From Vezdaea acicularis (lineage: Eukaryota), in NCBI GenBank assembly GCA_026025075.1, contig JAPEUI010000029.1, forward strand, positions 62,001 to 126,000: a DNA stretch of 64,000 nucleotides, read 5' to 3'. Made by a program: the position numbers and the translations under genes. Below are positions 48,432 to 64,000 of the stretch, piece after piece. Numbering within the stretch: position 1 is the first letter of the stretch; each line of letters opens with the position of its first letter. The notes under the pieces are model-generated. The model was given only the letters and a program-made list of their open reading frames with translations, ran no database searches and was not told the DNA's origin.

Positions 48432-48903
48432 TTCAACGGACGGAGCAATTTAATGGGGGAAAGCACTGAGATGGACAGAGCACGGATGGAATCTGAACTT
48501 TGTCAATAAAAGTCCGAGTATTTGTATGTTCCATTTTTTCAGGGTCCACACGTAGGTGCGGCATGTTTGTACCAGATAGATATTAAACCGTGTGCCTGTC
48601 TCCTGATAATTAATATCTATGTAGATATTTATTCGCTTCGCTAAATATATGCGGTTCCCGCCTGCCTATTGGCCAATGGGGCTGCACGAACGGGGGTAAG
48701 CTCCCGACGTCACACCAATTCCACGGTTGGAGATCCATATGACCAATCCCTGACGCGGCTGAGGCTTGCATATGACGCGGCGTTTTAAGATTCGCGTGTT
48801 GGAGTGCAGTATAAGCTTTCTGTGTTCTATTATCAAGTCAACCTCGTGGCCAGAGTAGAATTAAATTCGTGAACGCTCCGTACAATCCATAGCCACTCAC
48901 CAA

Positions 48904-50016
48904 ATGCCAGCTGGGCGTCCTCGACTTCACCGTACTAGAGAGGAAGCTCTGGAGGCGCAACGCGCGTCCAAACGCCTACATGCTCGGCGGCTTCGGAATA
49001 AGAGAGCCCGACACGAATCAAACAGCACACCCCCCTCAACGGTAGCAGAAGTGGCCGTATCTCGGGCTCCACTTGACCTTGTTCCTGCGCACGCTGTTGA
49101 ACCAGCGATAGCACGTGTACTTGACCTGGAACTCATCCATCATTTCACAACGGAAACATGCTTCACGCTATCGGACCAGTCCCGCGCGCATCCGGTATGG
49201 CAAGTTGTGGTCCCAAAGGAAGGTTTCGCCCATCCCTTCTTACTACGGGGTATCCTCGCACTTTCTGCACTCCATCTGGCATTTCTTCGGCCCGAAAATG
49301 CTCATCTCTACGAAATGGAGGCGACGATCCACCAAGACGCTGCTTTGGGCTTCTTTCGCACGGCCATGGCAAACGTCACGCCGACAAACTGCGACGCTGT
49401 TTTTGCCTTCTCTTCAATACTTGTGTTGCTAGCGTTCGCTTCGCCAAAGCCTCGTGGGATTCTCGTGCTTGTAGATGCTAAGCTGAGTGGCACGGAGTGG
49501 TTTGGATTAGTGAGAGGCAGTCGCCCTTTACGTGCCAAGATTTGGGATTGGCTCGAAGCCGGTGCAATGGCTCCGATGTGCGTAATTGAGCAAGTCGAGA
49601 ACATCAACTTCTCCGGTACAGGAGCTACCAAGCATCTTTCCGCTTTCTTGAGGTATTGTGATGAATCCGAAGATGAACCGTTTGTCAAAGCTGCCTGCGC
49701 TTTGGCTATAGAGGATCTTGAGGTCTGCTTTGCGCGTTTGGCTTCAAAAAACGCGACAGCGAGCAAGGTGAATTCAGTGATAGCATGGCCAAATGGGCTG
49801 ACCCAGGGCTATATGAGTCTGCTAGAGCAGAAACATCCAAAGGCTTTGGTCATACTAGCATTCTATAGCCTCGCTCTGCGCTATATAGATAGCTACTGGT
49901 GGGTCAAAGGTTGGCCAGCTCACATTCTATCAACTGTACATCAATTGGTAGACGATTCGATGCAACCTTGGCTCGAATGGCCATCTCAGGGGATTGGAAC
50001 AGACGAAACTCGATAA
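48904..50016 (+). CDS. Fungal transcription factor with Upc2-like C-terminal domain but no Zn2Cys6 cluster
   Basis: DLELIHHFTTETC.TL, FAHPFLLRGILALSALHLA, NCDAVFAFS, WFGLVRG, ALVILAFY, WWVKGW, W..WP. N-terminus is GRPR plus a basic helix with no Cys. Confidence 0.85.
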   Translation: MPAGRPRLHRTREEALEAQRASKRLHARRLRNKRARHESNSTPPSTVAEVAVSRAPLDLVPAHAVEPAIARVLDLELIHHFTTETCFTLSDQSRAHPVWQVVVPKEGFAHPFLLRGILALSALHLAFLRPENAHLYEMEATIHQDAALGFFRTAMANVTPTNCDAVFAFSSILVLLAFASPKPRGILVLVDAKLSGTEWFGLVRGSRPLRAKIWDWLEAGAMAPMCVIEQVENINFSGTGATKHLSAFLRYCDESEDEPFVKAACALAIEDLEVCFARLASKNATASKVNSVIAWPNGLTQGYMSLLEQKHPKALVILAFYSLALRYIDSYWWVKGWPAHILSTVHQLVDDSMQPWLEWPSQGIGTDETR

Positions 50017-50461
50017 GCCCGTACCTATTTTGCTCTTCATCGATCTTGTGTAATGAATTCTTATAACAAGAGCTTACTACCCCCAAAAAACCCCTTCACG
50101 TTTGCGAAAAGTGTTCCACTCATTAACAGGACTCGACTAACAGAAAAGCGTTCTACTCCGTTTTCATAGTGAGCTTTTCGAACACCAGGCTAATTATTGC
50201 AGTAAGACTTACACGGCTATTTGGACGTCGCATCTGGTATAGAATTCTTCTGGGTGCGTGATCTTTGCCAAATGATGAAGAATCTCAAAGTCTACTTCAA
50301 GATTACTAGTGGGCTAGAACAGCTTGTTCTTGGAGTTGAATAAATCCACACCTATGACTTCATCTGTGGTCATTGGCGTAATACAAATTATAACACGATA
50401 CACGACTAAGAGGCCTCGCTTTGTGCAAGCGTGTATATCTAGAGACTGGTCAGATACAGCG

Positions 50462-53400
50462 CTAGGCCTGCTGCCGTTCGGGCCTATCTCGGGCCGGTCT
50501 CTGCTTCTTGAAGCAAGCACTAATAAACGGTTAATCTTATGAAAACACAAGCACATAGACACGTACAATTCTGCTCTACTAGTTTCACGAAGTGTCCTCA
50601 ATACCTGCCGCATCTCGGGCAGCTCTTTTTGCAGTCGCTTCCGCGCATCTTCGTCGGTTCCTCGATCCAATTCCGTATAAATCTGGGCTTGCAGCTCAGA
50701 CGCTCTCTCAGAGGTGTATTGACTTAAGGTCTGCGCGATGAATTCGACATCTAGTGTTGCTTGCATCAGGGCCGAAAGTGAAAAGCGACCACGGGCTTTG
50801 AATGCTGCGAGTAGAAGAGAGGAGAGCTGCTCAAGTAAATGGGAGAGAATTTGCGACGTCAATGAGGGAGCAGTCGTAGATACTTGCGTATGTACGAGAA
50901 CAAGGGTCAAGAGTGCCTCGTAAACATAAGGACGCACTTCTGCAGGCCTTGTGCCAATTTTAGGCGCCCAACTTGGATCTTGAATGCCTTCACGCACAGT
51001 TCTTGAGAGCTTATCCACTGTTGCCCGGTTGACAGATGCGAACAGCCGCGCATCTATCTGTCCAAGGACGTCATGAATGGTTTTACTTTCATCTGTGAGC
51101 GTCACACTGAACAGGGTCTCAAAAGAAGAGATAAGGCCCGGGACGATATCACTTCTCAATGCCATAAGATTGGCGAGAGTGAGCAGCATCCTCCGACCCT
51201 GGAATGATGTAAGAAACGGTCTAATGACAAGCTCAAAGAGTGAAATACCTTGTCTCGTGCATTTATAGGATGTGCGATGATTATTCCTTTTGCGTTTCCT
51301 GCGATTGGGTTTGCGATACCATCAGGGTCATCGTCCCAGTGATTGGTAGTAAGCACCACAGGCTTCTCTGCATTTGAGACCATCCCGCTGAACGCTTTAT
51401 ACAAGCTTGTCACAAACTGGGTGCGGACCATTTGTAACAGCTTGGTGGGAGGGGGGAGAACGACTTCGGCTGAGCCAGCCTTAGTCATTGCCTCCGAAAC
51501 ATACAAGACTTTCTGCATTCCTGAGAGAACGCCAGTCTCGAACGCTCTAAAATGCGAGGGCATTTTCGTTAAGCTCGTGTTCTCATTCGATTTGGTCCAG
51601 TCCTCCAGTACTTTACAATTCTCCGCGTCTCTGTTCCATGCAGCGCATATGGCTTGCACGCATCTCTCCCGCGTCCCTCCAACAAAGTTTTTCATGCGCT
51701 CGAGATTGCCCGTTTCGTGATTGACCCCAGAAATTCCGGCCATTTCACTAGCAGCAGTACCAATAAGAACCAATGCCTTCCCAAGGTAATACACGCCACT
51801 CAATGAATTCGAGTACGGAGGCCAGAACGCGAACTTTTCCCAGGACTCACCTAATTTTGGCGAAGGCGGTGGGGGATTGTTTTGATCAAACTTGAAGCGA
51901 GGATCCTGGAAAGCTCCCGGTGCGAGATTAGCTGATCGCGGTGTATGGGGTGTACGAGGTGTGCGTGGTGTATCTGGAGTCTGCGGAAGTGGGGAGAAAA
52001 GGAGAGATATGTCCTCGATAGGAGGATCAGCAAAGAATGAGAAGACGTTATCTCTTATCAAATTCACCAGCTCGCTCGCCCCACTTTGAAGATCCCTAAC
52101 ACCATCAGAAGATAGACGATGGTGCTGCCGACTTTGGCCGTCGAAACCAACAGGAAGTGTCCTTTGTGTCTTTCCATCAATGAACGCGCGAGCTGTATCC
52201 CAAAATTCAAGAACTTCTCCCAGTATACCCCCTGATGAAGCTAAAAGCAAGTTCAATGATGAGTACGTCAGATCCCACATCTCGATTACTTCACTCTCAT
52301 CCAAGCATTCGGGCTTGTGCTTCAGGCCCTGATGGACCGAAGCTCGTAGATTTGACGCGATTAGTTGAGGACCTGGAGGTGTCCTTACCGCTAAGTTTCT
52401 GCGCAGAACTTCGACTTGCATCTTCAACCTCTCAGAGGTCGAAATGATCTTACTTTTCAGGTGATCGTATCGACTCAGGAGCCATACCCAGATGGGATTA
52501 TCCTGGACTCCCAACTCCAACAGAATACTGATGAGCTCCATATGCTCCTCTGGTTGGCCTGCTGAACCCATACCACCTGACTGAGTACTTGGTTGAATAC
52601 CGACGAGCCTCCTCCACATATCTCTTTTGAATCCTTCGATCTGGTCTTCTACATCTAGCCACATACGTGCCGTCACAATGATTTGGTGGATTTGAGCATC
52701 ACTCAAAGAAGTGCCGCCATGAGCAGCATTCTCTACGACGATACCAGCCCCCTCCTTGAATTTCCTCGCACGCCCATACTCTTCAACTAGAGCCTCATAA
52801 TCTTTCCGCTTTATGCAATCAGCAATGCTCGGGCTAACTTCGTAGACACCAGTGTAATTATCGACAGCGGCTAATGCGGCCTTCAACCCGCTTTCACGCT
52901 CTCTTCCACCTAGTGCAGGTCCCCAAACTTCCTCAGCTTTGACCGCGACTTCAATAAGTGGCACCTTGATTCCAGCTACACCATACTCAGCCTCTTTAGT
53001 CAACGCATTCTTTTTCCTATCGGGCGCGCCTTCTGGTGGCAGACCAGGACTCAGGGGGCCTCCAGCACTTGTGGTTCTGAAATGTGTACTGTTCCGGCTC
53101 CCGTGCCTTGAGTGCGGGCCAATCCCCAATTTAGTTTTCGACTGAGCTGCAGGAGCTCCTTGCTGCCGCATCTCCGTGTACACATTATCAATGGTAGCTT
53201 TAGCCCTTACGAATCGCTCGAAGTTCGACTCGACCAGGACTTTCAAGGACGCGGACTTCTGGTCAATGGATCGTGACAGGAACTCGAGACCATCCAGAAG
53301 AGATTGATTGGAATCAGCTGCATGAACTTGGGCAAGAAACATAGTGGGTGAAAAACTCGTTGATGAAAGTAAGAAGCGATTTCCTAGAGCAATGTGTTAG

Positions 53401-53777
53401 TCACCGAGGTTGAACTTGAGTATGAGTATGAGCGTACGAAGCTTGGCGTTGTCATCCACTGGAAGACCCTTGCTCCTCAACAGCTGCACGACACTTCCTG
53501 AAGATCCCAGTGGGTCGGCCTCATCTTTCTGAACTAAGTTCTCGACCCCATCTCCACCTCTTTCAGAGCCTGGCACAGACCGACGTTCACTGCCCTGCCG
53601 ATCGAGGTGCGCGTACTTGGACTTTGACCTTCGAACCAGTGCCCCAGCTTTTGTTCGAGAAACTTTAGGATCATCGTCTCCAGACCCATCATCTACGTCC
53701 TTCTCGGCTGGCCATTCCTCTGGGAAAGGGTGATTTAAATTGTAGTGGCCGAGGACAGCTCGCTCAAAATCCCCCAT
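50462..53777 (-). CDS. SEC5: Exocyst complex component Sec5, 4 exons
   Basis: DEADPLG, FLLSSTSFSPTMFLAQVH, LKVLVESNFERFVRAKATID, LLELGVQDNPIWVWL, MLLTLANL, LMQATLDVEF, last exon ACFKK. Confidence 0.93.
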
Positions 53778-54204
53778 ATTGGCCTCCGGGCAACCAATTA
53801 CGGTCGACTAGGTTTCGAAAGGCCCAGGTCAAAGTCTGCACCAACATCAAGTTTCATCTTCTATATCTCGTGTCTTGGTTTCCGCGGGCGATTTGAAGCT
53901 GGTTCCATATTTGCCAGTGGTTACGAACTGGATTTCCAAAGTTCCAAGGAATAATTTCCAGCGCAACTGACCCGAATAGCTTGCAGTATCTAGTCCCTCA
54001 CCAGTGATTGGCCACAAGCTCGAATTGAATCTCGGCTGAAGAAGCTCATGCTTAGCGCGTTGCTTCTTCCTAGGAGCCATTTACTTATCACCTCCCACCT
54101 GGATCGCGCTGCCACCACTCTTTCGTACCGTAATATGATCAACAACTTTCCCGCTGCATCTCTCGAACTCCCCTGTACTTAAAGACTGGATCAGCCTTAG
54201 AGCC

Positions 54205-55650
54205 ATGCTAGTCACTCGCTCAATTCCTGCTCCGGCGCGGCAAGTTTTGCGCAGATGTAATGCTGATCGCCGATGGTTACCAGTATTAACCCCGGTACGA
54301 GCAACAACTCCTTCCACACTTCCATAAATTATGGCGAACTAAAACACTAATGTCAAACATTTGAAGACCCAATCAAGGTTCTATTCCGTTCCTGAGGCAG
54401 AGAAAGTGGCAAAGTTCAAGGGTAAAAAAGGCTCAACTGTAAGGCTTGCTCTCCAAGTCGGAGGTCTACAACGACACTCTCCGAGACCTTAAGGTCAAGA
54501 TTTGCGTTCTGACGGGAATTACAATCTCAAGGGCAAATATACTGTCACGCTGATCGAAGGAGATGGTATTGGGCCGGAGATCTCACAATCAGTCAAGGAC
54601 ATATTTGCTGCGGCTAAGGTACCAATGAATTGGGCACGGACTTCAATGGCCACAACATGCTTACGAACTTATCAAGGCACCAATTGATTGGGAACCGGTC
54701 GATGTTACCCCTCACCTCAAAGATGGCAGAACTGTCATCCCTGATGAAGCAATTGAAAGCGTTCGCAAGAACTTTGTCGCCCTCAAAGGTCCATTAGCCG
54801 TAAGTGCCTCGCGCGACCCCTCCTCGCGCGGAAGCCAGTGCCTGACTTTGCGCGCCAGACTCCTATTGGAAAAGGACATGTCTCTCTAAACCTCACTCTC
54901 CGCCGAACGTTCAATCTTTTCGCCAACGTCCGCCCGTGCCGATCTATTGCCGGCTACGAAACCCCGTACAAAAATGTCGATACAGTTCTCATTCGTGAAA
55001 ACACAGAAGGCGAATACTCCGGGATCGAGCACGTTGTCGTCGATGGCGTGGTACAGAGTATCAAATTAATCACACGAGCGGCAAGCGAGCGTGTGTTACG
55101 CTTTGCATTCCAGTACGCTGAAGACGTAGGCAAACGGAAGGTCACGGCCGTTCACAAGGCAACAATCATGAAGATGTCGGACGGGCTTTTCCTAGGGACG
55201 GCGAGAAAGGTCGCCAAAGACTTCCCGCAAATCGAGTATGCGGATGAGTTGTTGGACAACGCATGCCTGCGGATCGTCACGGACCCAACGCCATATAACG
55301 ATAAGGTGCTCGTTATGCCAAACTTATACGGTGATATCCTGTCCGATATGTGCGCCGGCCTTATCGGTGGGCTAGGTCTTACACCATCCGGGAACATTGG
55401 CGACGAGTGTTCTATCTTCGAGGCTGTCCACGGGTCAGCACCCGATATCGCAGGCAAGGGTCTCGCGAACCCAACAGCCCTGCTTTTGAGTTCAATCATG
55501 ATGCTGCAGCATATGGGTCTGAACGAGCATGCAGACAACATCCAAAAGGCAATCTTTGACACGCTCGCCGAGGGCAAGTTCTTGACAGGCGATCTAGGAG
55601 GGAAAGCTAAGACCCATGAGTACGCTGAGGCTATCATTAAGAAGCTGTAA
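54205..55650 (+). CDS. IDH2: Mitochondrial NAD-dependent isocitrate dehydrogenase subunit 2 (catalytic), 5 exons
   Basis: Arg-rich presequence [89 protein letters not shown]. Confidence 0.95.
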
Positions 55651-56100
55651 ATATGGGATTAGGTTCGGCTGGGAACGGTGTATGAGGGGGGCATGATGAA
55701 CGAGGAATGGGCGAAGATGATATCCTGAATTTGCATAGTCATATATTGTAACAATATGCATGAACCTTACGGCACTTCGGTCCTTCATGCTTGCTGCGTA
55801 TTCCATCCCCCATACCCATGCTCGCGTGTATTCTGAGGAGCATTCCTTTTACTAGAGTTTGCGTTGTCTCTTGTCTTTATCGGTGTCAAAGAAGTCTATC
55901 TGAATGCTCCTTAACAGAAGTGTGGGGTCCTTGGCAGAATATGATACGATTATGATAAAAACAAGACCCAAAATATCCAGTTAAAGAAGTAAAACGATCA
56001 CCTAACTAACTTCCAAACCCCATCAGTACTTCCACACAAAACAAGAATCAAACTTCAAGTCTTCAAACTCCAAGTCTTCTAACCATCTAAAAACAAATAC

Positions 56101-56105
56101 AAAAA
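56101..56105 (-). terminator. RNA polymerase III oligo-T terminator of the tRNA-Leu gene
   Basis: TTTTT on the minus strand, 7 nt past the tRNA discriminator base. Confidence 0.75.
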
Positions 56106-56158
56106 GATTAATTGATGGGAGTGGGACTCGAACCCACGCTCAGTTTCCCGAACCAGGA

Positions 56159-56177
56159 GATCTTGTTAAGATTGAAA
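56159..56177 (-). other. 19-nt canonical (TSEN-type) tRNA intron at position 37/38
   Basis: TTTCAATCTTAACAAGATC, one nt 3' of the anticodon; contains CTTAA, complementary to the anticodon loop TTAAG. Confidence 0.85.
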
Positions 56178-56185
56178 CCTTAACC

Positions 56186-56238
56186 CTGCGAAGTTGATTA
56201 GTAACAGAAGTGAGGTCCATGGCATCGGATATACTAAC
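56186..56238 (-). other. 53-nt spliceosomal-type GT-AG intron inside the tRNA anticodon stem (between positions 29 and 30)
   Basis: 5' GTTAGT, branch ACTAAT (56202-56197), 3' CAG. Precise excision restores CCAGG, which pairs with CCTGG. Confidence 0.85.
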
Positions 56239-56962
56239 TGGCGCCATAACCAACTCGGCCATCCCACCATAAGGTAAGATTGGAGGTGAAATTAAAATAT
56301 ATATATCTCAGACAAAAGGATTTCAGCAGAATAGGAGATGCTTGAGGAATTTTTGATGCCTGGATATCGTTACTGGTGAATAAGCTAAAGCGCCGGGCGG
56401 TAGACCCGACAATGCGACAGCAGTATTCTGTATTCACAAGTAATCTTAGGCAGTTTAGTCTTCCTTGATTCGGAGATTTTCATTGCAGCCAATGCCCTGT
56501 GTTCATTTGATCTACTCGGCTTGGGTCTGAAATTGAGGAAGAGCGGCTCATAACGGTGCTTCGGCCATACTCCACACCAACAGCACCTGCAGACAAATCA
56601 GATGTAGAAGTGCATTTTTCATAGGGGGTCTATTGTACTCTACAGTAGGCCTGCTACCCACTCCTCAATTAGTATCTACGATAGTCTTGCTATAGTATAT
56701 ACAGACCCTATTAATTCCCCCTAACAAAAGCGCGGGGCCCTAGTTTCTGCGCAAGTCACTGCCGCAGTCCCTCCATTCAGTATCCCGAATCTACTCTATA
56801 ACCACAGCGCTCAAGTGCGAGCAGGCGAAGGAAAAAAGGAGGAATGCAAAGCGCAATGCCCGTCGCAGAGATGCAGCAAAAAAAAAAAGAAGCCAGCAAA
56901 AGGTAAAGAAGTAACCCAAAGTGAAGAACATAGTGGTTGGAGTAACGGAGACGCAGTGTCCC

Positions 56963-59900
56963 TCATGGACGCTTCTTGCTGCTGCCCTGATCGGCTTCTC
57001 CATCGTCAACCTCGAGCATTTGGCTCAACCCCTTGAGCGTTATCGAGCTTGACGAGAAGTGGAGGACTACCAGCCATAAGGCAACAAGGTTCACAAGGTG
57101 GTGAAGGATGTATGCATATGTGACGCCGTATACGGCAGCGTAGACAGCGAGGAGGAAAAGAGAGGTGTTGGTGATGTAGCTCAAGCGGCTAGTAATTCTT
57201 GGTACCATCTTTCCACTCGTGAGGGTCTCCACGAGAAGAATGAAAGGCATGATAGACAGGACATTATGGTGGGAGGAGAATGGCGTGAGCCAGTGGACGG
57301 AGAGATTATGAATCCAGACGACGAGAACAGGGAGATTTATCGGGAGGATCCAAAGCATTAGTATGAGGATGGAGTGAGCATAGTTGTAGAAATTATAATG
57401 GGACCCAGTCCGCTGCATCAGTGGAAGCATTAGCGCATTGGTTGGTGGTGATGGAAGAGGGATATTAACTTACGGACTCACGAGTGACCCGAAGGGCACG
57501 GGTACAAGTTGCTATTTGTACAATGCAAGCTACCAGGTATGCGAATTGATAAGGAATCAAAGTCGATACTAGAATTAGGAGAACAAACGTCGTGACAATC
57601 CGTCGGCGGGGAGTAGGTGCCGCAAACGCAGGCGAAGAAGCCCTCCTATAAAAAAGATTAGCAAAGAATCTGACCGGGCTTTTCGAAGCAGTTACCTTCT
57701 ATCGTCTCGTTGCAACCAAGCCGGCCTCGCAGTAAGAATGCTTAGTAGGAAGGAAAGAATATAGGTTACGCCGAGCGCGATGTAATTGAGCACAACGCAG
57801 CCGCCAACACTAACAAGTCCAAGGGTCGGCACGAGAAACCAAAAAAATGAATCTTGCGACCCAAGCAACAGGTCATTCTTCGTGTAGTCGGTCAAGGTTT
57901 CAGTTGCGTTCCTTCGCCACGGTAGGGGTCCAGATTGCGGTCTTGACATGTGTGAACTCGAATTGGCCAATGAAATGGCCAAGAACGATAGGGCAAGTAG
58001 CAGTATTGGTAGCGACTTGCGTAGGCAGAGATCCATTGCCTCGGAAAAAGGTACAAATACTCCCTGTTCATCATAAACCTTGAATTGTTTGCGTAAGACA
58101 AGGGCGACGACCAATAGCGGGAAAGCTGCGAAGACAGTCATGTAGCGCATGACCAACTTCCCCATACTACCCGCAACATCGATTCGTAATGAAACGTCCA
58201 TTGAAGTATTACAATTGGAATCTGACCACAGCTGTAACGATACGCCATCAACGGCACTCTTAGCTTTGAGAGGCGGTGGCATGAATGGAGCTACTCCATG
58301 TAAGTTGATACCAGCTTGCTTAACATTCACGAAGTACTTTGACTCATACGGATCGGACAAGTATTGGCGTAGTAAGGGAGAAAACAACTCTGAATCTTCG
58401 CCGCAAGCTTGGTTGCCGATGACAAGATTGTAAGCGAGTAGGCTGGAGTGTATGGCTGGTATCTTGATCTCTGTGACCATGGGTCTATTTGCTGGTAGCC
58501 TCAGACGTAACCCTGATGTAAGGAGCCGGCCAAGTCCAACACTAGGTTCTATCACGGACGCTCCGTGATCGTTAAATTCGGCAACCACCCATCCTGACGT
58601 GAAGTTGGTGGCCTTATCGATGATTGCAACAAATTGGTGATCGGAGATATCTTCAAGATCATACTGGAGGTAAGAGAATGCCGATCCTTCCTCAAAAGGA
58701 TACTTGGACGTCCTCGTGGATGCAGGAAGAGAAATCACGTCTTCTGCTGCATTTTTGCAGGCCAGCCGAGTCGATCCAGAGCTATTACCTGAAAGATCCA
58801 TGTTCATGGAGAAGAGGGTAGCTGACTGACCAGCCTGAAGGGGGAAGACGCTACAGAAGAGAACCTCGAGATTCCCACCATGGCCTGGCGGATCAAGCTT
58901 TTCGTTCGAAAGGAGAGTGAACTTTGATCCTTCCGCTGTACCCCGAGGGGGGACAGGCAGCAGATACGCCTTTGGCTTTCCTGCTTGACCGAAACTCCTC
59001 AACGTGAACCGTGTGCCTTCCTGAATGATCGAATTAGAGTTATCCTCAAGTGTAAGAAGCGTAGTAGGCTCTTGATGGGGAAGCGTCTTTTCTGCTACTT
59101 CCTCCATCCCTGTCAAATACCACTTCTTAAATATTCGCATCCGGTCTGCCCGTGGCTTTGTTTGTCCAGGTCGATGTACATCTACAACATCCATCAACGA
59201 TCGCACTATGATCTTTCGAAATTGATCACACCATAGAATAGCCTGATGATCCATTCCCGTCCACACGCTTGGTACAGATGAAGTGAACACCGTAAAGCCA
59301 TGAGTATCCGGAACTAGGGATGAAAGACTTGCGTAATCTGACGGCACCACAGTATCCAACCCACCCCCTGCAATCGATATCAAGGTCACATGCCAAAGTG
59401 GGTTGTTGTTTGCCCATTTCTGCGAGTAGGCCTGCCTCCAATATTCATTGATTCGTTTATAAGTTCGTACCATTTCGGAATCAAAAGAGACTGGGGGTCT
59501 AGCATGTGGAGCTGACATCGTAATAATTGTGTTGATCGAATTCGATTGGTAATTGGGCATTGTGAGCATCGTCCGTGCGACTATGCCACCCATCGAATGG
59601 CCTACCAATATCACAGAGCTTGGATCTGGAAGATCTGGATCCTGCATGGACCTTCGATCTTCATGATACAAAGACAAGATGTATGCCACAGCTTCATTCA
59701 AATACTCGGCCTGATCTAACATTGTCTGTCCATGAAATGCAGTGATATCTTCGTTGAAGTCGACTGTAAAGAAGTCAAGGCTTCTCGTCCCGCTCTTGAG
59801 AGCTTCAGCATTGAGTTGTACGGAATCGTGGAAATACTGTGCCGCCTCGGCCGCTATGGGTCGAACTTGTTTATAGCTTCCAGCATTTCCAGGTATAAAT

Positions 59901-60546
59901 AGCACTGGCACTCCCTTGACCTAGATATGCTTAGCGCAGCTTGCGTGTACAGATCTAAGAGTCAACATACCTTTGTATCCTCATCGATGCCGCTTTCCCT
60001 ATACAGGTAGAGCGAATACTTGCTTGCAAAACGCGTGTGCTCTGTATCAAAGTCCTCAAACTTGGCGAAAGCCGGGCGCATGTAGGACATGCGGCAGCCC
60101 TTCACATCCAACTGTCGCGATACGAATGAGTGAAGAGTTGTGAGGACAAGGAACGCAGCGAGAGCAGTAGCGAGTAGCGTTGAGGGCGAACATGACCACG
60201 GACTACGCATTCGTGACCGACGGTGACGGGCAGAGTGCTGCATCTCCGTATTCGCAGCCTGCTGCGGGGGCAAAGATATCACAGCGTGCTGCTCCTTCGC
60301 CGGGGATCCATTTATAGGGGAGAGGGATTTCCAGATCTGGGAATGGCCGGGCTGTATTCCTGTATCAGCCTTCCGCCGGTCGAGGGTTTCGGAAGTTGCT
60401 CCAGTTGCTATCGTAGTGGGCTTTCGAGCGGTCGGAGGGCCGTCTCTCTCGTCGCCGCCAGGGGGTGAGGCAGGAGCAGACGAAGGCTCTTCTTCGTTGT
60501 TATCGTCGTCGTCCTCGGCGGCGGAATTGGAGGGCCGTCTCCTCAT
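56963..60546 (-). CDS. BST1: GPI inositol-deacylase (Bst1/PGAP1), 4 exons
   Basis: GCRMSYMRP, ASKYSLYLYRE, GVPVLFIPGNAGSYKQVR, lipase motif GHSMGG, DHQAILWC, multi-TM C-terminus. Confidence 0.95.
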
Positions 60547-61725
60547 TTAATCCACGATGAGCCCGTCGCAGCTCAGAAAGTCCTCTCGGGCGTGCGCTCG
60601 GGGGCTTCAATGGGAGAGTCAACTAAGGCGACGGGTGAGGTCGAGGAGGGTGGTGAGCGCCAAGAACGTGATGACGGGAGAGAAACAAGGGTACCGAGCG
60701 AAATTGGGCCTCGTCGCTTCCTACAGTGCACACAGAGCGCTGAGCGAGCTGAAGACCATGGCCACGCGACACAAGAGGAAGGTAGAGGAAGGTTGAATCT
60801 GAAACGAGCGCAAGGAGCCACGGCAATGCCTCACCAATGCCAACGGGTCAGTCGTGGCTCCAGCGTTCGAACCTCGATCGAATTCCGTATAGGGGACGAC
60901 ATATGCGTAGCCTAGCGGGATACTTGGTTCTACAGCATAGTGCAGCTGCAGCGTGCGCGTACCGAAATTTGCCGGTCGGCGGATGGCGCTCAGTCGCTTC
61001 GAGCTGTCCGTCACCTCCTTCGGAACCCTCGAATGGAGGAAGTCTGGTGGTTGCTTTTTTGTAGCGTCTTCCGCGACCATCGAAGAAAGCGAGCAGGCCC
61101 ACGGCGCAGGTTGGCAATGGAGGAAGACGATACGAAACAATCTATTGTGTCACGTCATGGAGCAATGAGCAGCACGGAAACTGAGCTAAAATGAATCCAG
61201 CCGGTCAATGCTGATCGGCCGCATGCGACGGTGACAATGCAATACTAGGGGACAAAGTTCATGCCGGGATCAATAGATAGGCCGTGGAAGTCAAGATCCT
61301 ATCAATGTCACTGACTTCGAGATGGGACGCCTTCTCGAGCTACCACAAGAAGCTAGGCTCTGTGCGATAAGACAAAAGCTTCTTGAGCATGCTAGCTGCA
61401 TTGCCTTTGACATCTATGCATGCAGCTTTGCATAGTATGCGTTCTAGTGTCTTCATAGAGCCCCTCAAGCCCATTTCATGCTTGGGCTCACTTGCCATTC
61501 CAGACTCGCTCCACCGACGTCACTGAATTCGCATGACTTACTGAACTTGAATTTCTGAGCTTGGAAGCTTGAGGCTATCCGGCCAACTTCTAGAACCCCA
61601 GACTCCAAGGAAAAGCATGCCCGAATCTTGCGGCTAATCGGCCTGCGATTGATCATTATTTCATCTAGCACACAATCCTTTTACCACCTAAGTCATTCGA
61701 CGTAGGCAAATGGCGGCGCCATCTG

Positions 61726-63806
61726 TCAAGTAAGCAATGGACCTACAGTGACCCGCTCTCGGTGTTTCATGGTCTCCATCTGCTGAATCTCATTTCTTGC
61801 CTTTTCCTCTTTCCGCTTTCCCGCAAGAATCTTCTCAAATCTACCCCGGGCACCATGCTTGAGCTTTGTGATCATATCGCCTGCCTTTCCTTTAGTGATA
61901 TCTCCTTCCGTAAGCTGATCATCTTTGGTTCTGAATTTGTTCAGGAAGGCAATTTGGTTCTCTGATGCCGGTCGCCGCCTCCAGGCTTGGTCTTTAGACA
62001 CTGAAAACCAAGGATAAGCTTCTTGAGCGTAGGTGTCCGCCGCATGAACAGCGTCAGCGAATGTCTGTGCAGTAGCAAGCTCTCTAGGCGGCATAAAAGG
62101 GGCTTTCGTTTTAGCAGTAATATGACTGATTTTGCGTGTCTCACGAATGATATAAAGGGATTCCTTCTTCTCCATTGTGAGATAGTGCCCCGCCTGTGTT
62201 GAAAGAACGTATTTCTCTTTCGCTACCTCAACCCAAGCAAGGGGGCTCAAGGCGCGTATATGTCTCTCGCCTGAAGTATCCTCGATCAGCTCGAACACGG
62301 AATCATAATCCGTGAAGGTGACAGTGCTGCTAATGGATTTGGAATTCATCACTCGATTCTTTGATGTTGACGAGACCTGCTGCTGCCGCTCCTGCTCTGC
62401 TTTTTTGCGTTCTAGGGCTTTCAAATCTCCAACCTTGGCTCCATCAACAAGTACTGACGGGTCTAATCCAAAAAGCGTCGGTATAGTAACAATGCCAGTC
62501 TCCAGTGAAGCAACCATGTCAATGATATGGCAGTCCTTCTTCCCGGGGTACAAGCGCATCCCTCGGCCAATCATCTGTACGAGCAGGTTTCTTGACTTAG
62601 TAGGGCGAGCAAGCAATACGCAGTCGATGTTTGGGATGTCTGTGCCTTCGGTAAACACTCCGCAGTTGATGATGACGGGGTATTCCCGCCTTTTAAAGGC
62701 GTCAAGCCGTTGGCTCCGTTCTGCTTTTGGAGTGTCTCCCGTAACGAACCTTGCATCAAAGCCATGGTTGCGAAAAGCATTTGTCAGTCCTGCTACATGG
62801 GCAAGATCTACACAAAACACGATTGTCGATTTCCGTTCACCAGCCCTAGATATCCATGCTCGAACAGTCAAGTCATTTGTCTGATCCGTGTTGATGGCCC
62901 TTGAGAGATCAGAAGGGTTGAAATCTCCGTTCACGCCGTTCTTGACCGCTGAGATGTCCGCTTTTGATTGTACAGTAGTGAAGAGCACATCTGCGAGCCA
63001 CTTTTCTGATATCATATCCACATAATCCCTGAATAATCAGTTTAGAGAACGATTAGATGATCTGGATGATTTTACTTATGATAGACGATGTGATCTATTA
63101 CCACCCCAAGTTTGACACCATCAAATCGTGATAGGGTAGCGGATACGCCGACAAGTGCTGGCGAATTGCTAGAAGGTTTCAGCAAACCGAAATGATCAAG
63201 CGTTCGCATGTAACCAGGCGTGACTGCATGATGACACTCATCAATAAGGACCAGTTTGAATCTTGTCCTATCAAACTTCGCCAGTCGATCACCCGAATTG
63301 ATGCTCTGAATCGATGCTATTGTGATGTCGGCGAAGCCAGAGGCATGCAAGTTTCCCATTTCTATCTCAATGGTTTTATCGGGGTACACCCTGCTGCAGT
63401 GGCTTGCAGCTTGCTCGACAAGTTCCCGGCGATGAACGAGGATAAGTGTCTGGCTTGCATTTTGAACAGTGTGAGGTACTTGCTCAATCAGGTGCGTAAA
63501 GATGACCTATAAAGAGTCAGCTTGGTATAGTGTATAGTTCGACGAGCACCTCCTGACCGTCTTGCCACTGCCTGTAGCCAGCGATATGCCAAGCCTCCTC
63601 CTTCCTTTCTCTAGATTTGAAAGGACTGATTGGATACATTCCTCCTGATACTTCCGCAACCTGGTCTTTATTGCTTGGCTCGGCGGAGACCCGAGAGCGT
63701 TAGGGGAAACATGAGGTGTTGTTGCTAAAAATGCCAAGGACTGGCGAGCGAACTGCTTTCTGGGGCGAACAAGGGCGCAAGATAACTTTAGGGATGTAAA
63801 ATTCAT
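61726..63806 (-). CDS. IRC3: Mitochondrial SF2 (DExH) helicase Irc3, 3 exons
   Basis: Presequence-like N-terminus, [79 protein letters not shown]. Confidence 0.92.
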
Positions 63807-64000
63807 CCCATAGCACGAGGGAGACTTCAGTGCGTAGTCTCTTCAGCTTAGGGCTCAAAGCTAAGCCTCATTGAGCTTATGAATGAAGTGAAAGAGCGAA
63901 CTGACTGGCCTGTGTGGTTCAACGGATTGGAAGTTCATCGCTTAGCAGGCACCCCACCTATGACGGAACTCCTACTGGACAGTCCAGCAAACGTTCCCTA

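Follow-up and report, generated by a model that had tools for sequence, protein, structure and literature searches.

Can the gene of a nuclear transfer RNA (tRNA) carry an intron of the kind that the spliceosome removes from messenger RNA (mRNA)? The question is raised by a tRNA-Leu(AAG) gene on the minus strand of the window analysed here, which is a stretch of 64,000 nucleotides (nt) from Vezdaea acicularis (contig JAPEUI010000029.1, positions 62,001 to 126,000 of the forward strand); all coordinates below count from its first letter. Besides an ordinary tRNA intron, the gene holds 53 nt in the 5' strand of its anticodon stem that have the appearance of a U2-type GT-AG intron. We would put about even chances on the reading that this is a live nuclear gene which gained such an intron beside its ordinary one. 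A preliminary description of the locus, made from the letters alone, had interpreted it in this way, as the source of a precursor that requires the spliceosome as well as the tRNA splicing endonuclease (TSEN). That interpretation is partly supported by our results: the anatomy turned out to be exact, and the two processing steps are what we infer from it. The gene and the elements around it are laid out as follows:

56113..56268, minus strand: tRNA-Leu(AAG) gene, 156 nt with its two inserts and 84 nt without both, delimited with Rfam RF00005 and with ARAGORN after in-silico deletions
56239..56268, minus strand: 5' exon of 30 nt, comprising the 5' strand of the acceptor stem, the D arm, G26 and the anticodon-stem bases C27-C28-A29, and including the A-box region
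56250-56261, minus strand: A-box region, in the 5' exon
56186..56238, minus strand: spliceosomal-type insert of 53 nt, between tRNA positions 29 and 30
56178..56185, minus strand: middle exon of 8 nt, GGTTAAGG, comprising G30, G31, U32, U33, the anticodon AAG (56179-56181) and G37
56159..56177, minus strand: canonical tRNA intron of 19 nt at position 37/38, as called by ARAGORN
56113..56158, minus strand: 3' exon of 46 nt, comprising U38, the 3' strand CCTGG of the anticodon stem, the variable arm, the T arm, the 3' strand of the acceptor stem and the discriminator A
56138-56152, minus strand: long variable arm, within the 3' exon
56124-56134, minus strand: B-box region, in the T arm
56101-56105 and 56089-56093, minus strand: two T5 runs resembling terminators of RNA polymerase III (Pol III), 8 and 20 nt past the discriminator
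56291..56307, minus strand: TATA-like stretch rich in A and T, -39 to -23 relative to where the tRNA starts, read from the sequence

The box regions were placed with the consensus motifs of the A box and the B box, and the TATA-like stretch may have a role in Pol III initiation. The tRNA family RF00005 matches 56113-56268 on the minus strand with 38 bits against a gathering score of 29, over model positions 1-71, and its alignment passes over 81 nt within the anticodon arm. Nothing besides this tRNA was returned by the Rfam scan of the whole 64-kb window with E values up to 0.1. When both inserts are removed, ARAGORN folds the remaining 84 nt into a Leu(aag) cloverleaf in which all stems are paired: the acceptor stem has 7 bp with one G.U, the anticodon stem consists of five Watson-Crick pairs and the variable arm has 4 bp. 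The anticodon loop then reads TT-AAG-G-T, with U33, the anticodon and a purine at position 37 as required. The gene thus has what marks a class II tRNA-Leu (cloverleaf arms with a long variable arm, box regions and oligo-T), and of the marks of a pseudogene, namely damaged stems, lost invariant bases and a lost promoter or terminator, none is seen; its sole lesion is the 53-nt insert. Runs of four or more T are absent from the gene, either insert included.

The layout of the minus strand given in the preliminary description is identical to the sequence as read. Its statement that arms, boxes and oligo-T are intact holds too, with every stem paired and both the box regions and the T5 run at 56101-56105 present, and its remark that the locus does not look decayed agrees with exons that show no damaged stem or invariant base. 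It had further claimed that excision exactly at GT..AG restores a CCAGG/CCTGG stem, and had predicted that deletion of 56186-56238 in silico would reveal a Leu-AAG gene with a 19-nt intron. The deletion, evaluated with ARAGORN, recovers the Leu(AAG) cloverleaf and yields exactly this call, a Leu(aag) whose 19-nt intron is in the canonical position. On the native sequence the outcome is quite different. ARAGORN reports no tRNA in the window in its default mode, and in intron mode it reports a Pro(cgg) with an 83-nt 'intron'. The latter call was rejected: it takes the variable-arm hairpin of the Leu tRNA as the anticodon arm and puts the 83-nt 'intron' between stem and loop. The expectation that tRNA scanners would miss or mis-call the gene was therefore borne out for ARAGORN in either mode, and since the gene was missed or misnamed, tRNA gene counts in fungal genomes could be biased.

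The two inserts differ in kind. In the minimum-energy structures of RNAfold, the 19-nt insert pairs with the anticodon region as an 8-bp helix. Because of its position at 37/38 and this helix, which is the expected one, it is by all sequence signs an ordinary tRNA intron, and the 53-nt insert is of another type. As a reference for the latter, homologous proteins were fitted to three neighbouring genes and the GT..AG excisions that best restored the alignment were kept. This gave seven local mRNA introns, which are listed here together with the signals of the insert:

59970-59921: PGAP1 intron, 50 nt
57695-57646: PGAP1 intron, 50 nt
57473-57413: PGAP1 intron, 61 nt
53437-53384: Sec5 intron, 54 nt
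51248-51199: Sec5 intron, 50 nt
54619-54676: IDH intron, 58 nt
54800-54858: IDH intron, 59 nt
56233..56238, minus strand: donor GTTAGT of the insert, with the exon letters CCA before it
56197..56203, minus strand: branch motif TACTAAT of the insert, its branch A 12 nt from the insert's 3' end
56186..56188, minus strand: acceptor CAG of the insert, the first AG past the branch motif

A wider intron set built by rules for joining open reading frames was discarded; its 95 candidates had a flat +3 position (C 28, A 25, G 23, T 19) and were mostly false positives. The seven local introns have the branch motifs CTAAG, CTAAT, CTAAT, CTAAC, CTTAC, CTTAC and CTGAC (CTNAY), placed 10-17 nt before the 3' end, and they end in TAG, CAG or AAG. 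With 53 nt the insert falls within their range of lengths (50-61 nt), and its CTAAT branch motif recurs in two of them. Its donor agrees with the consensus at +1, +2, +4, +5 and +6. The claim that the insert resembles mRNA introns in size and signals can be maintained: length, branch, branch distance and acceptor are all inside the range of the seven neighbours, the donor position +3 excepted.

How rare such a combination of signals is can be judged from the 53-mers of both strands of the window (n=127,896). GT..AG ends are found in 429 of these, 21 of which also have GT at +5/+6, and 10 also have YAG. If a CTRAY 8-20 nt before the 3' end is added, the full signal set remains in two, one of which is the tRNA insert. 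Moreover, the insert lies in sense orientation relative to the tRNA, and the tRNA sets its two possible excision registers. Given this rarity, the registers fixed by the tRNA and the sense orientation, chance is no credible origin of the splice signals. Within the 64-kb window, a second copy of the insert, as expected of multi-copy or introner-like elements, was not found.

Two other stretches nearby resemble the insert in some respect. The other 53-mer with the full signal set (56654-56706, minus strand, GTCTGT .. TACTAAT .. TAG) lies on the same strand, ~260 nt downstream of the PGAP1 stop and ~390 nt upstream of the tRNA gene, and could be an intron in a 3' untranslated region (UTR) or a piece of an unannotated transcript. 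In a global comparison it is but weakly similar to the tRNA insert, with a score of 5 that is attained by 10 of 2000 signal-preserving shuffles; an unrelated PGAP1 intron scores 4 against the tRNA insert. The part of the insert that is best matched locally elsewhere in the window is nt 15-37 (56202-56224), which resembles 55912-55936 on the minus strand, ~180 nt downstream of the tRNA gene, over 23-25 nt with 2 mismatches and a 2-nt gap. This likeness is attained by none of 200 shuffles within +-1 kb and by 2 of 60 over the whole window, and it is either a hint of a local origin of the insert interior or chance. The stretch falls in a part (55808 to 56065) that is skipped by contigs of run X5, one of the runs described below.

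To what extent does the insert occur in other DNA? We compared the DNA contigs of four public runs (X1, X2, X5 and X6); the runs with matching DNA are labelled moss metagenome. Contigs bearing the insert are present in three of the four, namely X1, X2 and X5, which come from two studies. X6 has no contig over the insert interior and carries no weight either way. Run X5 holds a relative of the window's fungus; its flanking contigs, set against the window, show 189 differences in 3524 letters and 232 in 4253 (~5.5%). These contigs reach the tRNA gene from both sides, up to either end, and the locus is therefore syntenic, with large skips in the spacers relative to the window. A 132-letter contig of the same run (56136-56267) contains the insert at the same length, with 14 letters that differ, one 1-letter deletion and one 1-letter insertion. 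Among the X5 differences listed (3 of the 16: 56215, 56206 and 56210), all lie in the insert interior, outside donor, branch and acceptor. Judged by this comparison, the insert is older than the split between the window and X5 lineages, which is of the order of that between species, and has changed since.

At one of these positions, 56215, the window has G on the plus strand and the contigs of X1, X2 and X5 have A (the depths of the X1 and X2 contigs are <5); the letter of the window, at nt 24 of the insert, looks derived or private. X5 and X6 have several indels in common relative to the window (12 letters inserted after 56748, 2 missing at 56830, 5 missing at 56885 and 1 inserted after 57461), and the two runs seem to hold one second lineage, ~5.5% from the window's fungus. 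Pattern searches in larger collections added no further case. The 19-nt pattern of exon 1 plus GT hit four loci in the metagenome contig collection, none a tRNA, and a gapped pattern of exon, insert and anticodon hit two bacterial loci in public genome contigs, with no tRNA gene according to ARAGORN. With the reading frame that stays open across the gene as query, the protein collection yielded no candidate from relatives.

All four runs also contain contigs that join 56184/5 to 56238/9 and so lack exactly the 53 nt. On the plus strand the skipped letters are bounded by CT..AC, equivalent to GT..AG when read on the strand of the gene. In X5, the contig ending in exon 1 continues into a different 5' flank, and the insert-less copy is therefore a separate locus. 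Intron-less Leu-AAG genes very probably exist elsewhere in the same genomes, and the copies seen in the metagenome runs could be from other organisms. Whether such copies exist had been raised in the preliminary description; according to the contigs of the four runs, they probably do.

The break points of the contigs are informative as well. The contig that bears the insert runs from 56267 to 56136 in X1 and likewise in X5. A k=31 graph would be expected to break at these points if another locus had the same exon 1 (with the G at the start of insert and exon 2 alike) and the same letters as 56135-56165. The X5 exons, as those of the window, would then be identical to the exons of the paralogue, and the two loci would differ inside the 19-nt intron at 56166. 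Because the break points in X1 and X5 are identical, drift appears to have altered the insert and left the exons as they were.

By our own arithmetic, a neutral locus would have been expected to accumulate ~3-8 changes in the 84 exon letters of the window since the split. No change is visible in any stem or invariant position of these exons. The divergence of the insert region is nearly 20% if the 14 substitutions fall in the ~72 non-shared letters, and ~11% if they are evenly spread. Active tRNA genes are described as having fast-changing flanks and introns around strongly conserved exons (PMC6130373), and the locus resembles the active genes of that account in that its exons are kept and its insert region is changing. 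We lean towards a gene under selection. If so, the 53 nt must be removed, and the signals point to the spliceosome.

Several points weigh against a live, spliced gene. At +3 of the donor stands a T instead of the A found in all seven local introns, the sole off-type feature of the insert. The exon letters CCA before the donor depart from the usual exon end, and other GT sites in the D arm (e.g. GTTGGT at gene nt 15-20) could compete as donors. The comparison with X5 covers one diverged lineage, and the conservation of its splice signals and exons partly follows from reasoning, 11 of the 14 substitution positions not being among those listed. Since contigs without exactly the 53 nt occur in all four runs, other Leu-AAG copies probably supply the tRNA, and the insert-bearing copy could be dispensable. 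Gene conversion from a paralogue could in principle keep the exons intact. Finally, an insertion in one of many synonymous eukaryotic tRNA genes is generally taken as the sign of a pseudogene in the account of PMC4090602.

These points come together in the main rival explanation, a young disabled copy, which we regard as possible and as a serious competitor, though less likely than not. It supposes that a spliceosomal intron was inserted into one of several Leu-AAG genes, either by reverse splicing into the tRNA followed by reverse transcription and recombination or by some other route of intron transposition, and that the transcript is unspliced or spliced too rarely to count. Paralogues would supply the tRNA, and the exons would be intact owing to the short time elapsed or to conversion by a paralogue. 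The insert-less contigs in all four runs, with the one X5 contig that represents a separate locus, fit this explanation, and so does the unusual +3 of the donor; besides, an insertion by reverse splicing is exactly excisable on paper whether it is spliced or not. The age of the insert is harder to accommodate. It predates the split from X5 (~5.5%) and has changed at up to 14 letters plus two indels, and still the exons of the window are undamaged. Conversion offers no easy way out: exon 1 consists of 30 nt between the unique flank and the insert, a conversion tract crossing 29/30 would delete the insert, and 30 nt would be a very short tract for a conversion that spares it. The break points of the contigs, moreover, indicate that the X5 exons equal those of the X5 paralogue.

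The remaining alternatives are much less probable. That the insert arose in the window through misassembly or as a chimera deserves hardly any credence, because the independent contigs of X1, X2 and X5, from three runs and two studies, contain it in place. Very unlikely, too, is that the 53 nt are a non-canonical tRNA-type intron cut by TSEN, as in archaea (29/30), Cyanidioschyzon merolae and nucleomorphs. When bulge-helix-bulge motifs around the insert were sought in all 16 registers, the best register had 7 of 10 pairs, a value matched by 889 of 2000 shuffled sequences; the minimum-energy folds are free of such a motif, the insert alone reaching only -3.8 kcal/mol. The bulge-helix-bulge reading was rejected on this lack of a motif above chance and on the non-canonical position 29/30, and the earlier claim that the insert site lies at 29/30, outside the normal cut of the tRNA endonuclease, is upheld. 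Fungal TSEN is generally taken to find its cut sites by measuring from the mature domain, which also argues against such a cut, and the set of GT, TACTAAT and CAG, present in 2 of the 127,896 53-mers, would be left as an unexplained coincidence. In favour of TSEN it can be said that non-canonical and multiple tRNA introns are known, archaeal ones at 29/30 included, but these depend on bulge-helix-bulge motifs (PMC4090602). Improbable, if somewhat less so, is removal of the insert by the spliceosome from a transcript of RNA polymerase II (Pol II), such as a read-through or long 3' UTR of PGAP1; splicing would then be co-transcriptional, and RNase P and RNase Z would release the tRNA. The tRNA gene does lie on the strand of PGAP1, whose stop is at 56963-56965, and the other full-signal 53-mer (56706-56654, minus strand) lies between the two, which hints at spliced Pol II transcripts there. 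However, the gene possesses the full Pol III set, with box regions, a T5 run 8 nt past its end and no internal T4 run, and nothing indicates that transcripts of PGAP1 extend as far as 56268. The spacer that separates PGAP1 from the tRNA is poorly conserved, with skips of 112 and 200 letters in X5.

How, then, would a live gene with a spliceosomal intron give rise to a tRNA? Its internal A and B boxes are intact and it has no internal T4 run, so Pol III would transcribe the body of 156 nt from these boxes to the T5 run. The nuclear spliceosome, through U1 and U2, would recognise GUUAGU, UACUAAU and the first downstream AG, a step for which the Pol III-made U6 small nuclear RNA (snRNA) of Schizosaccharomyces pombe provides the precedent. 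The 53 nt would leave as a lariat and A29 would be joined to G30, completing the CCAGG/CCUGG stem. From the resulting, ordinary pre-tRNA, TSEN and tRNA ligase would presumably take out the 19-nt intron at 37/38. The spliceosome would probably act before TSEN; the anticodon stem is interrupted before the first step, and in yeasts TSEN cuts pre-tRNAs once they have been exported to the cytoplasm, out of reach of the spliceosome. That a nuclear tRNA would here mature through two unrelated splicing systems in series, the spliceosome and then TSEN with tRNA ligase, is a proposition on which we are evenly divided.

The gene is flanked on one side by the 3' end of IDH, a plus-strand gene that ends near 55650, and on the other by that of PGAP1, which is on the minus strand like the tRNA gene and has its stop ~700 nt upstream of it. 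Genes recognised in the neighbourhood (48865-63842) encode a Fungal_trans_2 factor, Sec5, an NAD-type isocitrate/isopropylmalate dehydrogenase, the PGAP1/Bst1 GPI inositol-deacylase and a helicase, and in gene content the region is an ordinary piece of ascomycete chromosome arm. The best named matches of PGAP1 (74-77%) are from Pleopsidium, Sclerophora, Chaenotheca, Thelocarpon, Pycnora and Sarea, followed by Leotiomycetes, and the best named match of Sec5 reaches ~61%. With the best named homologues only 61-77% identical, the host is a filamentous ascomycete of a poorly sampled Pezizomycotina lineage. One of the proteins compared, P0004 from a Chaenotheca gracillima metagenome-assembled genome, is a full-length PGAP1 homologue that its source names 'NADPH-adrenodoxin reductase', probably as a result of misnaming or of gene models fused in that record.

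What would such a gene mean? If real, it represents a spliceosomal intron in a gene for a non-coding RNA (ncRNA), which is a known kind, in a host class for which we found no reported case. It would imply that spliceosomal introns can colonise tRNA genes and persist there, and that standard scanners systematically miss or misname the genes concerned. Both eukaryotic splicing machineries would act on one small RNA. The transcript would also be a natural substrate for studying the spliceosome on an uncapped, fast-folding Pol III product, where it competes with end-processing and export. In addition, the locus would provide a clear-cut example of an intron gained by an abundant RNA outside the spliceosome, and as such bear on what governs insertion into ncRNAs, the determinants of which are described as an open question (PMC5855946).

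A full-text literature search, with most subscription journals outside its reach, found no published spliceosomal intron in a tRNA gene. In the parts of the literature that bear on this point, a review of tRNA processing sets the spliceosome apart from tRNA splicing and names no overlap between them (PMC10275265), and the three intron classes are handled as unrelated in an article of 2025 on the loss of tRNA introns (PMC12530127). Other ncRNA genes of fungi do have spliceosomal introns. The intron of the one U6 gene that S. pombe has, which is transcribed by Pol III, is one that the spliceosome takes out (Tani and Ohshima 1989, 1991, cited in PMC5855946), and many fungal U6 genes carry up to four spliceosomal introns (PMC5855946, with Canzler 2016 among the works cited). 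Introns of this kind are known, too, from fungal U1, U2 and U5 snRNA genes and from ribosomal RNA (rRNA) genes of ascomycetes, a list, in that source, in which tRNA does not appear (PMC5855946).

How the locus compares with these and other systems can be stated for each in turn. With the tRNA introns of archaea, C. merolae and nucleomorphs it shares the presence of two introns, one of them non-canonical, and 29/30 is a position listed for archaea (PMC4090602); those introns, however, have bulge-helix-bulge motifs and are cut by the endonuclease, whereas the insert has no such motif beyond chance and carries spliceosomal signals. The U1, U2 and U5 genes of Rhodotorula hasegawae resemble it in having mRNA-type introns in conserved parts of fungal ncRNA genes (Takahashi et al. 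1993, 1996, cited in PMC5855946), but these genes are transcribed by Pol II and belong to another RNA class. In the rRNA genes of ascomycetes, likewise, mRNA-type introns interrupt an abundant structural RNA that is not made by Pol II, and the fungi concerned are Pezizomycotina including lichen-formers; the best named protein matches of the window (Pleopsidium, Sclerophora, Chaenotheca, Thelocarpon) are to such fungi. Spliceosomal introns in these rRNA genes were reportedly described by Bhattacharya et al. in 2000. The difference is that rRNAs are Pol I transcripts and have no second splicing system acting on the same RNA. A close parallel is found in fungal U6. For U6, reverse splicing followed by reverse transcription is the favoured origin of the introns; the tRNA, on the other hand, is no component of the spliceosome, so that nearness to the catalytic centre cannot explain the insertion. 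Nor does U6 have a second, tRNA-type intron that needs another enzyme system, and splicing has been demonstrated for S. pombe U6, whereas the tRNA is known here from its sequence. What both have in common is a short GT-AG intron with a canonical branch in a small, structured Pol III ncRNA gene of an ascomycete, and in both cases the function of the RNA needs its exact removal.

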